Source of the DNA: Planctomycetota bacterium
Lineage (GTDB): Bacteria; Planctomycetota; UBA8742; UBA2392
Assembly: GCA_020425605.1 (NCBI GenBank)
Contig: JAGQRH010000001.1
Location: 92,650-156,649, forward strand
Length of the DNA stretch: 64,000 bases
Direction of reading: 5' to 3'
Position numbers and translations under genes: made by a program. The notes under the pieces are model-generated. The model did not search any database, was not told where the DNA came from, and was given only the letters and a program-made list of their open reading frames with translations. The number at the start of each line of letters is the position of its first letter. Within the stretch, counting starts at the first letter, position 1. Of this stretch, positions 3,060-54,556 are shown in pieces.

Positions 3060-3766
3060 ACATCGAAGCACTCGCGGATGAAGTGATTCAGCGGCTGCGC
3101 AACTTCACCAACCGCGAACGGCAGGACGCGACACAGAACTACTTTCCCAGTAAACAGCAGAACCTTGGTGTGTACGCGGCAGATCTCAGGGGCGTTGTTC
3201 GCGATATCAAGAAACGTATCAATGGCGAAAGCAGCGCGGACGTTCTGAAGCTCGCGCTGGCCATCATCGCCCGCAACACACTCGAGGGGCGGCAGGCGGC
3301 CTACGAGATTCTCGAATCGCACAAGACTGCCGTCGCGGCGCTGAGGGCTCGAGACATTGAGGCGCTGGGTGAAGGCATCGACAACTGGGCCAGCGTGGAC
3401 GGCTTCGCCTGCGGCATCAGTGGCAAGGCCTGGCGCGAGGGACGGCTCAAAGATGCCGACATCAAGCGCTGGGCCCGCAGCAAGGACCCGTGGTGGCGCC
3501 GTGCTGCCGTCGTCAGCACCGTGCCGTTGAATCTGCAATCACGCGGCGGGACCGGCGACACGCCGCGCACCACCATGGTTTGTCAATTGGTTGTCGGCGA
3601 CGATCACGTGATGGTTCACAAGGCCCTGAGCTGGGCGCTGCGTGAGCTGTCAAGGCGCGACGCCAAGGCCGTGCGAGCATTCCTCAAGAAGCACGACGCA
3701 GAGCTTCCGGCGTTAGTGAAGCGAGAGGTGTTACGCAAGCTGACGACCGGGAAGAAGAATGGGTAG
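3056..3766 (+). CDS. DNA alkylation repair protein (AlkD-like HEAT repeat)
   Basis: IDNWASVD, WARSKDPWWRRAA and MVHKALSWALREL motifs. Confidence 0.85.
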   Translation: MNIEALADEVIQRLRNFTNRERQDATQNYFPSKQQNLGVYAADLRGVVRDIKKRINGESSADVLKLALAIIARNTLEGRQAAYEILESHKTAVAALRARDIEALGEGIDNWASVDGFACGISGKAWREGRLKDADIKRWARSKDPWWRRAAVVSTVPLNLQSRGGTGDTPRTTMVCQLVVGDDHVMVHKALSWALRELSRRDAKAVRAFLKKHDAELPALVKREVLRKLTTGKKNG

Positions 3767-11489: not shown

Positions 11490-12647
11490 GTGGATTTCGA
11501 GCTGAACGAAGAATTGTCGATGCTGCGCCAGACCGCGCGCGAGTTTGCCGCAAGCGAACTGAAGGCCAAAGCACGCGAGATGGACAAGGCCGAGGAGTTC
11601 GACCGAAGCGTCTTCCAGAAGATGGCCGAGATCGGGCTTACAGCGCTGACGATTCCCGAGCAGTACGGCGGCTCCGGCTTCTATGAAGGCAAGATGGCCA
11701 ACCAGGCCGCAAGCATCACGCTGGAAGAGATCAATCGCTGGTGCGCGAGCACCGGCGTGACGCTCAGCGTCCACATGAGCCTGTTCAGCAGCCTTCTGAC
11801 CAAGTTCGGCAGCGATGAGCTGAAGGCGCGCGTGCTGCCCAAGGTCGCAAGCGGCGAGTGGCTCGGCGCGTACTGCCTGTCCGAAGCCGGCAGCGGCACG
11901 GACGCGGGAAGCCTGGTCTGCGAGGCAAAGAAGGACGGCGACGAGTACGTCCTGAACGGTAGCAAGCTCTGGATTACCAGTGCACCCTACGCGGACGTCT
12001 TCATCGTAATGGCCCGCACAAGCACCGAGCACAAGACCCGCGGCATCAGCAGCTTCCTCGTTGAGGCTGAGCGCAATGGCATCACCATCGGCAAGAAGGA
12101 AAAGAAGATGGGCATCCGCGGCAGCGCCACCAGCGAGGTGCTGTTTGAGGACTGCCGCATCCCCGCCGCCAACCGCATCGGCGATGAAGGCAAGGGCTTC
12201 GGCATCGCGCTCGATACGCTTGATGGCGGGCGGATTGGCATCGCCGCGCAGGCGATCGGCATTGGACGCGCCAGCATGGAAGATGCGACGGACTACTCCA
12301 AGACGCGCGAGCAGTTCGGCAAGCCGATCAGCAGTTTCCAGGCCGTGCAGTGGATGCTGGCCGAGATGGCCATGAACCTGGATGCAGCTCGGCTGCTGGT
12401 GCACCGCGCAGCCTGGCTGCGTGACAACGGCAAACCGTGTGCGTCAGCGGCCGCGATGGCCAAGCTGTTCGCGAGCGAGACGGCCAACAAGTGCGCGAAA
12501 GACGCCGTGCAGATCTTCGGCGGCAACGGCTATAGCAAGGAGTACGACGTAGAGCGCTACTTCCGCGACGCCAAGATTACCGAGATCTACGAAGGCACCA
12601 GCCAGGTCCAGCGCATCGTGATCGCACGTTCACTATTGGGCGATTGA
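11490..12647 (+). CDS. Acyl-CoA dehydrogenase (short-chain/butyryl-CoA type)
   Basis: LSEAGSGTD, NGSKLWIT, KMGIRGS, REQFGKPI, QIFGGNGY and IYEGTSQVQ motifs; RBS GGAGG before GTG. Confidence 0.95.
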   Translation: MDFELNEELSMLRQTAREFAASELKAKAREMDKAEEFDRSVFQKMAEIGLTALTIPEQYGGSGFYEGKMANQAASITLEEINRWCASTGVTLSVHMSLFSSLLTKFGSDELKARVLPKVASGEWLGAYCLSEAGSGTDAGSLVCEAKKDGDEYVLNGSKLWITSAPYADVFIVMARTSTEHKTRGISSFLVEAERNGITIGKKEKKMGIRGSATSEVLFEDCRIPAANRIGDEGKGFGIALDTLDGGRIGIAAQAIGIGRASMEDATDYSKTREQFGKPISSFQAVQWMLAEMAMNLDAARLLVHRAAWLRDNGKPCASAAAMAKLFASETANKCAKDAVQIFGGNGYSKEYDVERYFRDAKITEIYEGTSQVQRIVIARSLLGD

Positions 12648-12650
12648 CCG

Positions 12651-13127
12651 GGGTGTCAGGTTTCAGGTGACGGGTGTCGGGGCGCTGATGAGTGATCCGG
12701 ACGAGATACAGAGCTACCGCGACCTCCGAGTCTGGCAACGTGCGATGGATGCGGCCGAGCTTGTGATGGGGCTGATTGACGATGGCCCCCTGGCAAAGCG
12801 ATATCGCCTTGCGGCGCAGTTGGAGGCCTCTTCGGCTTCGATTCCCGCAAACATTTCTGAAGGCCACGAGCTTGCCACGCGCAAGCAGTACCTTGCGCAC
12901 CTGTACTATGCGCGCGGATCGCTCGCAGAAACGCTTACGTTCCTCGAGTTGTTCGAACGTCGAAAGTTGATTGACACCGATCGCGCGAGGGAGGCGTGGG
13001 GAGTGTTGATAGAAGTCAGAAAGATGCTGTACAAACTGACCTCACGGCTTGAGCAGGGAGCAGCAGTGGCCGAATCAGATCCCGATCCAAGCCCTGACAC
13101 CTTAAACCTGTAACCCGACACCCGACT
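12651..13127 (+). mobile_element. Putative cassette: four-helix-bundle gene flanked by inverted heptamer arms
   Basis: Left arm GGGTGTC AGGTTTC AGGTGAC GGGTGTC (12651-12678); right arm GACACCT TAAACCT GTAACCC GACACCC (13096-13123). Confidence 0.6.
12688..13113 (+). CDS. Four-helix-bundle protein (23S rRNA IVP / bAvd-like family)
   Basis: IQSYRDLRVWQRAM, QL..SSASIPANISEG and L.YARGSLAETLT motifs. Confidence 0.92.
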   Translation: MSDPDEIQSYRDLRVWQRAMDAAELVMGLIDDGPLAKRYRLAAQLEASSASIPANISEGHELATRKQYLAHLYYARGSLAETLTFLELFERRKLIDTDRAREAWGVLIEVRKMLYKLTSRLEQGAAVAESDPDPSPDTLNL

Positions 13128-13187
13128 TGGCCCGTAGCAGGATTGGCCCCGGCGCGGCATAATGAGGGTTCAGCCGCGGAAGAATGC

Positions 13188-14255
13188 ATGTCACAGCCAC
13201 AGCACGCCGATCCGATTATCGGCCAGACCTTCGGGAACGTCGTAGCCCAGCGAATCCTGGGCCGTGGCGGCATGGGTGCTGTGTATCTGGGCCATCACCC
13301 CGGTCTGGACATGATGGTGGCCATCAAGCTGCTGCCTGACCTGTTCGTCGGCAAGCGCGAGATGGTTGAGCGCTTCCTGCGCGAGGCGAGAGTTTCCGGC
13401 CGGTTGCTGCACCCGAACATCGTTCGCACGCTCGACGTCGGACGCGACCACGGCGTTTACTACCTTGTGATGGAGTACGTCGAGGGTGTCGATGCGCAGC
13501 GCCTGCTCGACCGCGAACAACGCTTCACGCCAATGCGCGCCGTGAACATCGCCGGCTTCGTCGCCCGTGCACTCGGTGAGGCGCACGAACAGCAGGTGAT
13601 TCACCGCGACATCAAGCCCGCGAACATCCTGATCGCGCGCGACGGCAAGGTGAAAGTAACCGACTTCGGCCTGGCGCGCAGTTTGACGAACACCGCGACC
13701 GCGCTGACGTTGAGCAACCAGGTCGTCGGCACCCCGAATTACATGGCGCCTGAGCAGATCAAGAGCATGGACGTCGACGTGCGCGTGGACATCTACGCGC
13801 TGGGCGTGACGCTGTGGCAGTTCTTGACAGGTCAACTGCCGTTCGAGGGCGCGACGCCGATGGCCGTGCTGCTGAACGTGGTCGGCGAGAACCTGTCCAT
13901 GCCGCGCGAAGTGTTTGACCCGCTGCCGAAGGAGCTGCGCGAGGCCGTAGTCGCCATGACCGCCAAGGACCCGCGCCGCCGCCTGCCGAACATCCCGGCC
14001 GTGTTGGCCGTGCTGAAGAAAGCCCGCGACGCGCTGCGGAGTGCGGGGCTGGACAGCACAGCGCCGATCACCGGGGCGCCGGTAAGGGCAAGCAGCCCGC
14101 AGATCCAGTCCATTAGCGACTCGGCCGCGCTGCGCAGCACGCATGCACAGCCGCTGCCCCGCAACGATCCGAAGAGCTTCACCAAGGCGCTCGGCAGCGA
14201 CGCCCAGCAGCGCCCACCCCAACGCGGCGCCCCACCCGGCCCCCGCCGGAAGTAA
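13188..14255 (+). CDS. Cytoplasmic Ser/Thr protein kinase (Hanks type)
   Basis: LGRGGMGAVY, VAIK, HRDIKPANIL, DFG, GTPNYMAPEQ; no TM segment. Confidence 0.95.
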   Translation: MSQPQHADPIIGQTFGNVVAQRILGRGGMGAVYLGHHPGLDMMVAIKLLPDLFVGKREMVERFLREARVSGRLLHPNIVRTLDVGRDHGVYYLVMEYVEGVDAQRLLDREQRFTPMRAVNIAGFVARALGEAHEQQVIHRDIKPANILIARDGKVKVTDFGLARSLTNTATALTLSNQVVGTPNYMAPEQIKSMDVDVRVDIYALGVTLWQFLTGQLPFEGATPMAVLLNVVGENLSMPREVFDPLPKELREAVVAMTAKDPRRRLPNIPAVLAVLKKARDALRSAGLDSTAPITGAPVRASSPQIQSISDSAALRSTHAQPLPRNDPKSFTKALGSDAQQRPPQRGAPPGPRRK

Positions 14256-16236: not shown

Positions 16237-16286
16237 GACAGGAGGCAGGAACTGCTTTCGTGCCACCTGCTTCCAGCCTCCTGACA
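16237..16286. repeat. Inverted heptamer element (GGCAGGA-type), empty
   Basis: GACAGGA GGCAGGA ... CCTGCTT CCAGCCT CCTGACA; 13-bp inverted repeat with one mismatch. Confidence 0.6.
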
Positions 16287-54463: not shown

Positions 54464-54478
54464 GTGATTGAATCGATC

Positions 54479-54556
54479 GTTGGAAGTTGATGGTTGATGG
54501 AAACTGCCGTTGAGCCGCAGCTTTGCCGATCAACTTCCAACCATCAACCACCAACT
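54479..54556. repeat. Inverted heptamer element (GGTTGAT/ATCAACC), empty
   Basis: gttggaagttgatggttgatgg ... atcaacttccaaccatcaaccaccaact. Confidence 0.85.

Follow-up and report, generated by a model that had tools for sequence, protein, structure and literature searches.

We analysed a stretch of 64,000 nucleotides (the window), which is positions 92650-156649 of contig C76 in the Planctomycetota metagenome-assembled genome (MAG) G000 (4.24 Mb, 62% G+C, 86% complete). Our analysis showed that positions 12651-13127 of the window are an intervening-sequence-type hairpin cassette located outside rRNA, in which a gene for a four-helix-bundle (4HB) protein is carried between two inverted arms of heptamers. 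It fills the slot that runs from the stop codon of the upstream host gene to the start region of the downstream host gene, and it is the gene-bearing member of a lineage-specific family of heptamer hairpins. Comparison with related genomes points to an undescribed protein-plus-repeat element, with gene-plus-arms units and gene-less copies whose gain, loss and exchange among relatives are rapid. The features of the locus are as follows.

11490-12647, + strand: acyl-CoA dehydrogenase (ACAD) gene, the upstream host gene (Pfam Acyl-CoA_dh_N/M/1; sequence).
12651-12682, + strand: 5' arm, G-rich, GGGTGTC AGGTTTC AGGTGAC GGGTGTC followed by GGGG (sequence, fold).
12688-13113, + strand: cargo gene for a 141-aa 4HB protein, with ATG at 12688 and TAA at 13111-13113 (PF05635, TIGR02436).
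13092-13127, + strand: 3' arm, C-rich and an imperfect mirror of the 5' arm, CCCTGACACCT TAAACCT GTAACCC GACACCC GACT (sequence, fold).
13160-13167, + strand: -10-like box GGCATAAT (GCATAAT), 20-30 nt 5' of the kinase start (20 orthologous junctions compared).
13188-14255, + strand: Ser/Thr protein kinase gene, the downstream host gene (Pfam Pkinase, E = 4e-55).

An earlier note on this DNA had described four G-rich heptamers 3 nt past the ACAD stop and a C-rich mirror arm that holds the cargo-gene TAA. The sequence bears this out: the ACAD stop TGA (12645-12647) is followed by CCG, the 5' arm begins directly thereafter, and the cargo-gene stop falls within the 3' arm. The GGGG at the inner end of the 5' arm may serve the cargo gene as a Shine-Dalgarno sequence. 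The GCATAAT box before the kinase gene is kept in all genera of the family, as judged from the 20 orthologous junctions, and forms the distal border of the slot that holds the cassette. It is probably the -10 box or promoter element of the kinase gene itself, and the cassette would therefore be located here between a gene end and a promoter rather than inside an operon.

The cargo protein matches PF05635 over residues 11-115 of 141 (E = 1e-25, 90.4 bits against a cut-off of 33.8) and TIGR02436 (E = 5e-25, 87.7 bits against a cut-off of 24), which confirms the suggestion of the earlier note that the gene belongs to the 4HB family of 23S rRNA intervening sequences. A profile built from 21 family members matches PDB 2GSC (E = 1e-38) and 2RLD (E = 5e-16), both solved pentameric four-helix-bundle proteins, and these scores indicate homology for the cargo family. 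Eight residues are invariant in the 4HB family (W16, Q44, S51, N55, E58, G59, S78 and E81), and an N-I-x-E-G motif is present. The cargo gene is under purifying selection (pN 0.11 and pS 0.87 against the orthologue in G006), and dN/dS of the 4HB proteins is 0.04-0.17 where it can be measured.

Avd, the accessory protein of diversity-generating retroelements (DGRs), is a pentameric four-helix bundle that binds nucleic acid and reverse transcriptase. The cargo protein was rejected as an Avd, since the Avd model NF033474 gave only 19.5 bits (E = 9e-4) against a cut-off of 80; the likeness is that of a distantly related four-helix-bundle fold. The reverse transcriptase (RVT_1) matches of G000 are located on contigs C129, C131, C122 and C125 and none is on C76, template and variable repeats not having been searched for. 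No homologue of the cargo was found in phage records.

The association between this gene family and the arms was investigated at three scales. The only other PF05635 gene of G000 (C33:40501-40818) has a like layout with the heptamers GTTGGTG GTTGGTA, and its arm starts at the upstream stop codon. In 23 genomes of the same family, 57 of the 64 PF05635 genes have clear inverted period-7 arms. We then took a sample of 80 homologous loci, found with a 6-sequence alignment, from Proteobacteria, Gemmatimonadota, Acidobacteriota, Planctomycetota, Bacteroidota, Patescibacteria, Cyanobacteria, Firmicutes and other phyla. Arms were present at 76 of these loci and in 9 of 142 shifted control windows, and period 7 was dominant in 60. 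Thus, the proposed link between arms and cargo holds for both G000 copies, for most of the family and across phyla.

The position of the armed cassettes is also regular. In 53 of 57 cases the arm starts no more than 25 nt from the end of a co-directional upstream gene (median 0 nt), and in 50 of 57 a co-directional gene starts at a median of 15 nt past the 3' arm. Identity is 81% between mirror units across the stem and 61% between non-mirror pairs, a difference seen in 37 of 40 cassettes. This marks the arms as true mirror copies and excludes independent arrays. In 128 of 129 cassettes, G outnumbers C in the 5' arm. The earlier note had read this as polarity relative to transcription, with the G-rich arm first in the direction of transcription. 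This claim is void, since such a repeat reads G-arm first on either strand; what is real is that the G-rich arm is the 5' one and that a C-arm-first order does not occur in these cassettes.

Two candidate boundary signals were rejected. The upstream stop is TAG in 29 of 53 cases, but the genome background is equally high: TAG is the commonest stop codon of G000 (53% of about 3150 called genes, with TGA at 32% and TAA at 15%), which is unusual for a genome of 62% G+C. A GTAG/TAGTT motif before the 3' arm is not general either, being found in 15 of 57 family cassettes and in 3 of 76 cross-phylum loci, with about 3% in controls.

These results bear on an alternative explanation in which a gene has come by chance to lie between hairpins that serve as ordinary terminators or insulators, or are G-quadruplex repeats. 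The hairpins do sit just past stop codons, and G-rich heptamer repeats at like positions in Xanthomonas and Nostoc form G-quadruplexes (G4) in vitro (PMC4692102). However, no terminator-like site and no U tract was found in 12300-13400, many of the hairpins are operon-internal, and the GTTGRTR class of the second G000 cassette is without G runs. In the window cassette, the 5' arm has three tracts of at least three G, where the quadruplex criterion asks for at least four. Arms accompany this one gene family much more often than they occur in the controls (76/80 vs 9/142). The control windows and the operon-internal sites bring this explanation near to refutation, and we give it hardly any probability. 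Because the hairpins lack a U tract and many lie inside operons, they are not plain terminators and should not be annotated as such.

To see how the cassette behaves over evolutionary time, we compared the same junctions among the eight genomes of the genus (G000-G007) and the 23 genomes of the family. The states of the ACAD/kinase junction are listed below.

G000: filled.
G006: filled; protein 82% identical, same slot and same heptamer class.
G002-G005: empty hairpin of the AGGTTTC class right after the stop codon, then the same flank.
G007: empty hairpin with other heptamers (GGAGGTC).
G001 (sister of G000, ACAD 96% identical): the last 1.5 right-arm units and the flank, a deletion scar.

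The heptamer hairpin is absent from this junction in the other genera of the family, and in genus g4 (G017, G020 and G022 inspected) a hairpin type with the C/A-rich arm first occupies the slot. Filled, empty and absent alleles are thus all present at this junction. Because the flanking-gene tree leaves the deep order within the genus unresolved, the age order of the empty and filled states cannot be read at this junction.

Loss and gain are seen more directly elsewhere. G000 holds a short scar (TCAGGCGGAT) where five congeners hold a cassette with AGGCGGC arms. At the trkH/trkA junction, a cassette that is 75-82% identical to the window cassette and has the same heptamer class occurs in G003 only; an ordinary spacer of 60-70 nt is common to G002 and the two sisters of G003 (G004 and G005), G001 and G007 hold an empty hairpin of a third class, and the spacer is 5 nt in G000 and 11 nt in G006. 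Where relatives hold a cassette, G000 mostly has a tight, clean junction (e.g., TAG/ATG), and at one site the slot that is taken by a heptamer hairpin in G001 contains, at exactly the same position, a hairpin of the C/A-first type in G000. The filled and unfilled junctions differ over the whole spacer from the stop codon to the next start codon, and no target-site duplication was detected in the filled/empty comparisons (ACAD/kinase, trkH/trkA and a further site). The suggestion that filled and empty alleles mark gain or loss is thus supported by orthologous junctions, by scars in G001 and G000, and by the gain in G003.

At the sucB/lpdA junction the hairpin follows the class that is resident in the genome: it is of the GGTTGTA class in G003-G005 and of the GTTGRTR class in G000, G001 and G006, with a GC-rich repeat there in G007. 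We counted the arrays of each class as exact two-unit patterns in all 23 genomes, where the cassette's own arms contribute 2-4 hits. The hits in the genus are listed below.

AGGCGGC class: 11, 28, 52, 20 and 14 in genomes with the cassette; 0, 0 and 7 without; reversed control 0 everywhere.
GGTTGTA/GGGATTA class: 32, 48 and 37 with the cassette (one clade); 0-1 without (five genomes).
AGGTTTC/GGTGTC class (the window cassette): with the cassette, 12 in G000, 56 in G003, 30 in G004 and 2 in G006; without, 1 in G001, 1 in G007, 38 in G002 and 13 in G005.
GTTGRTR class: 6-24 with the cassette (five genomes); without, 30 in G003, 0 in G004 and 11 in G007.

Over the 32 genome-by-class cells, the median was 20 with the cassette and 1 without it (p = 5e-4; the cells are not phylogenetically independent). 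Arrays of a class are thus found mostly in genomes where a 4HB gene has arms of that class. The clearest contrast is the reciprocal one between the two sisters, with 12 hits of the window-cassette class in G000 and 1 in G001, and 0 AGGCGGC hits in G000 and 11 in G001. The GTTGRTR class is nearly confined to the genus, and outside it was found only in G009 (3 hits) and G022 (2 hits).

The arms are also related to the proteins that they enclose. For cassettes at different junctions, arm similarity was 0.19 below 50% protein identity and 0.74 above 70% (ρ = 0.23; 0 of 500 permutations). The cassettes L052 (G003) and L039 (G005) are located at different junctions and have a saturated pS of 0.82, yet their arms are identical at 33/33 and 31/33 positions. 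The heptamer sequence itself, and not pairing alone, is therefore constrained or kept uniform.

The comparisons show that gene and arms pass on as one unit, which is now and then copied to a new junction, that deletion often removes cassettes and leaves empty hairpins or partial-arm scars, and that hairpins of the class carried by the genome re-occupy junctions. We lean slightly towards the explanation that the 4HB protein and its cognate heptamer hairpins form a two-part element, of which the 23S rRNA intervening sequences would be a special case. The 4HB protein, presumably a pentameric Avd-like binder of nucleic acid, would recognise its own heptamer arrays and would be needed for their spread or retention. 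The palindrome would do more than form a sense-RNA stem, acting as DNA or as both DNA and RNA, and the cutting and joining enzyme may be a host function or some further function. A bolder form of this explanation, which we put forward as a possibility with the balance tilted against it, is that PF05635 proteins read tandem heptamer arrays in a sequence-specific way. Every paralogue with its cognate hairpins would then be a transposase-less two-part element that drives or protects the copying of arrays into intergenic slots and rRNA helices.

Several points weigh against the two-part element. Movement is deduced from comparison and was never directly observed, and we know of no report, and met none in the papers searched, of biochemical activity of PF05635 proteins on heptamer DNA or RNA. 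The gains resemble replacement of the whole spacer, and homologous allele exchange between strains could also produce them. The loops of the empty GGTTGTA-class hairpins that were inspected hold no remnant of a 4HB gene. G002 (38) and G005 (13) carry arrays of the AGGTTTC class (A1) without a detected A1 cassette, and G006 has an A1 cassette and no other A1 arrays; the genomes are MAGs of 76-94% completeness. The test of co-occurrence between arrays and cassettes is not phylogenetically independent, and the correlation between arms and proteins across phyla is weak and carried by pairs above about 60% identity.

The main alternative is that the element works mostly at the RNA level, in the manner of rRNA intervening sequences. 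The arms would pair in a polycistronic mRNA and loop the cargo out, either bringing the upstream stop close to the downstream start, or creating a site for RNase III, whose cleavage would part the cistrons and regulate 4HB translation, given a Shine-Dalgarno sequence buried in the stem; the spread of arrays would be a separate matter. Prediction of the stem is strong: the two arms, each with 32 nt and four heptamers, pair with each other when the whole 501-nt region is folded to minimum energy, and the arm duplex has an energy of −54.2 kcal/mol compared with −27.9 ± 4.1 for shuffled sequences (z = −6.4; 0 of 500), whereas neither arm folds on itself when folded alone. The geometry is suggestive as well, with the upstream stop at the base of the stem, the Shine-Dalgarno-like GGGG in its inner end and the next start just past it. 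The inner end of the 5' arm reads GGGG or GGGA just before the cargo ATG, the distances to the stop (53 of 57) and to the start (50 of 57) given above are short, and many junctions are operon-internal (e.g., gcvPA/gcvPB, sucB/lpdA and trkH/trkA). There is also a precedent in Coxiella, where a 28-bp heptamer stem is cut by RNase III (PMC4990558). RNase III processing of the kind shown for the Coxiella intervening sequence would fit the place where the stem lies, and the same predicted geometry would also fit a role in holding the two host cistrons close together. No promoter pattern was found on the cargo-gene strand in the promoter scan, and no Rfam rRNA or other Rfam family was found anywhere in the window.

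However, the mismatches in 57 arm pairs do not support selection on the RNA. Those of the G·U type in the sense RNA and those of the A·C type are equally frequent (98 vs 98), so that neither a bias towards wobble pairs in the sense RNA nor selection on a sense-strand RNA was seen. In addition, the arm sequence is conserved beyond the neutral expectation and not for pairing alone, and an RNA stem leaves the G-first rule and the co-occurrence of class and genome unexplained. The pairing in the mRNA that the earlier note proposed to loop out the cargo is thus a thermodynamic prediction, and the mismatch counts lend it no support. We consider a mainly RNA-level element doubtful, although it deserves to be taken seriously.

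A further alternative is that the heptamer hairpins are repeats of the REP/REPIN (repetitive extragenic palindrome) type, moved by Y1 (HUH, RAYT-like) transposases, with the 4HB gene as a passenger or an accessory. The earlier note had proposed a system with no transposase. The gene annotation of the window shows none in or next to the cassette, but a mechanism free of transposases remains a proposal: 11 Y1_Tnp (HUH) genes were found in G000 (C120:84481-84822, C98:22319-22663, C75:9202-9546 and eight more) and 9-28 per genome in the genus, with most in G003 and G004, which are also the richest in arrays. REP/RAYT systems use hairpin repeats at gene ends. However, most of the seven Y1 genes inspected in G000 are flanked by GC-rich REP-type hairpins (GCCCCGAAGGGGCG, CCCACGGCTGAAGCCGTGGG) and the others by none; no heptamer array lies beside these seven, which may nevertheless act in trans. 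Y1 genes and REP-type hairpins look like a REP/RAYT system that exists alongside the heptamer hairpins. The arrays, on the other hand, track the 4HB classes, and the layout of a 4HB gene with arms is seen at 76 of the 80 cross-phylum loci. Transposition of the heptamer hairpins by Y1 enzymes is therefore improbable. Reverse transcriptases (RVT_1 matches) number 0-4 per genome. G005 is without any, yet it holds many arrays and has five PF05635 genes, of which four or more are armed.

The closest known systems are the 23S intervening sequences with an ORF in Coxiella, Leptospira, Xanthomonas and Brucella, which share with the window cassette an S23p/PF05635 gene in the loop (PMC4990558), terminal inverted repeats, a stem of about 28 bp, and tandem heptamers on the 5' side just before the start codon. 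In Coxiella burnetii, the intervening sequence in 23S helix 45 has an S23p ORF, a 28-bp stem with tandem GACAGAT heptamers and RNase III cleavage; its authors regard it as a selfish element and discuss a possible mobile-element origin, with no transposase (PMC4990558). The window cassette differs in its location between protein-coding genes instead of in an rRNA helix (25 or 45), and in its many gene-less copies of the same class with filled, empty and absent alleles among congeners.

G-rich heptamer repeats at gene ends have been reported in Xanthomonas and Nostoc, with 70-75 convergent inverted pairs per Xanthomonas genome, and were read as quadruplex-forming (PMC4692102, which also lists REPs as a repeat class); four-heptamer elements were reported in Geobacter (PMC2700814). 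Like the arrays described here, they have 7-nt units with about four preferred, and are intergenic, within 50 bp of stops and between co-directional genes (PMC4692102, PMC2700814). However, no gene family is named in those reports, which give a G-quadruplex or regulatory reading (PMC4692102, PMC2700814), whereas the arrays of this genus bracket and co-occur with PF05635 genes, and several classes are unable to form G4.

REP/REPIN-RAYT systems are alike in having a single-copy protein gene flanked by its presumed target repeat and lineage-specific gene-less hairpins at gene ends; they differ in that the 4HB protein is without a known nuclease fold, in that the repeats here are tandem heptamer arrays rather than a single palindrome, and in that the seven inspected Y1 genes of G000 are flanked by other repeats or none. 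The Ssn/NTS system (a small GIY-YIG ssDNA nuclease with a genome-wide repeat) also joins a small protein gene to a multicopy cognate short repeat, but Ssn is a demonstrated nuclease while no activity is known for PF05635, and the repeat architecture is unlike (PMC11893778). The cassette differs from terminal-inverted-repeat transposons and miniature inverted-repeat elements by having no target-site duplication and no transposase in or beside it. It differs from a DGR with Avd by the low model score (19.5 vs 80), the lack of a reverse transcriptase on C76, and the armed cassettes of G005, a genome with no RVT_1 match.

Our literature search found no paper linking PF05635 genes to heptamer hairpins outside rRNA. 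To our knowledge, the intervening-sequence proteins of 23S rRNA have had no assigned function since they were described in the 1990s. The locus and its relatives thus link two problems, the functionless intervening-sequence proteins and the excess of heptameric repeats near bacterial gene ends. If true, the view of PF05635 proteins as array readers would give this family a function and would explain the known heptamer-repeat excess in bacterial genomes. The hypothesis that the protein recognises its own array can be tested directly, and the reciprocal sisters G000 and G001 offer a natural contrast.

Gene-less hairpins were investigated in the whole of G000. Among periods not divisible by 3, tandem runs are enriched at period 7, with 45 runs compared with 1, 4, 20 and 2 for periods 5, 8, 10 and 11. 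We found about 19 clear period-7 hairpins without a gene, nearly all of them intergenic and a few bases from gene ends, and the heptamer class of the window cassette recurs without a gene at about 9-10 other loci, at gene junctions. Those in the window are listed below.

1154-1213, no strand assigned: gene-less heptamer hairpin of GGTGTTT units that fills a znuC-znuB-like junction (fold z = −5.1).
16237-16286, no strand assigned: weak short hairpin with two CAGGAGG-type units after pheS, a doubtful member (fold z = −1.35).
54475-54545, no strand assigned: gene-less heptamer hairpin of the GTTGRTR class, the class of the second G000 4HB cassette (fold z = −4.2).

Of the four empty sites that the earlier note had listed, those at 1155 and 54479 are therefore well supported and that at 16237 is weak, while the hairpin at 3765 is no better than shuffled sequences (z = −0.24).

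In the gene-less GGTTGTA hairpins, which end in CAGG...CCTG, the order of the four units matches that of the filled cassette. The loop sequences bear no relation to the interior of the cassette, so the idea that these hairpins are internal-deletion derivatives with retained gene ends finds no support. We also considered whether period 7 is explained by stops in all three frames; this fits only the classes that contain TAG or TGA, and not the AGGTTTC class of the cassette. A sucB-like gene of G003 (L210, G003:C3:123204-123594, compared with L209 and L211) is without its own stop and ends at the TAG of a GGTTGTAG unit inside a heptamer arm, so the arms can donate stop codons.

Some arrays have an unusual form. 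L207 (G004:C13:61850-62350) has about 16 CCTGCCT/CCTGCTT units, which belong to another class, inside the loop of a GGTTGTA hairpin, whereas the orthologous hairpin L199 (G005:C18:158250-158640) has none of them; thus, arrays can expand or insert within existing hairpins. The mosaic L208 (G004:C50:2400-2900) has at least six heptamer classes on its 5' side, and nine CCCCAAG and five CCTACAA units on its 3' side; its arms are non-complementary, yet the order of G first and C second is maintained. At G003:C1:1472290-1472391, about 14 GTTGGTG units lie in one orientation with no inverted partner, and no 4HB gene with GTTGRTR arms was found in G003.

A partial second copy of the ACAD gene was found on a short contig (G000:C4:1119-1835). 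It is 89% identical over residues 1-239, and it probably comes from a co-assembled related strain (contamination estimate 2.5%).

A second type of cassette exists in G000 and in the same set of genomes. It carries genes of PF13366 (PD-(D/E)xK-like, 'GxxExxY') flanked by inverted arms that have a period of 9-10 and in which the C/A-rich arm comes first. The arm units are CACAGAG, CGCGAAG and CGCCAAG, and four of the six PF13366 genes of G000 have this layout.

C94:10202-10546: PF13366 cassette.
C76:87126-87473: PF13366 cassette, 5.5 kb before the window.
C93:629-976: PF13366 cassette.
C44:9857-10204: PF13366 cassette.

Because these arms are C/A-first and the 4HB arms are G-first, the arrangement goes with the cargo family. 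Gene-less copies of PF13366-type arms are common as well, such as the one between gcvPB and the next gene (C153:110532-110659).

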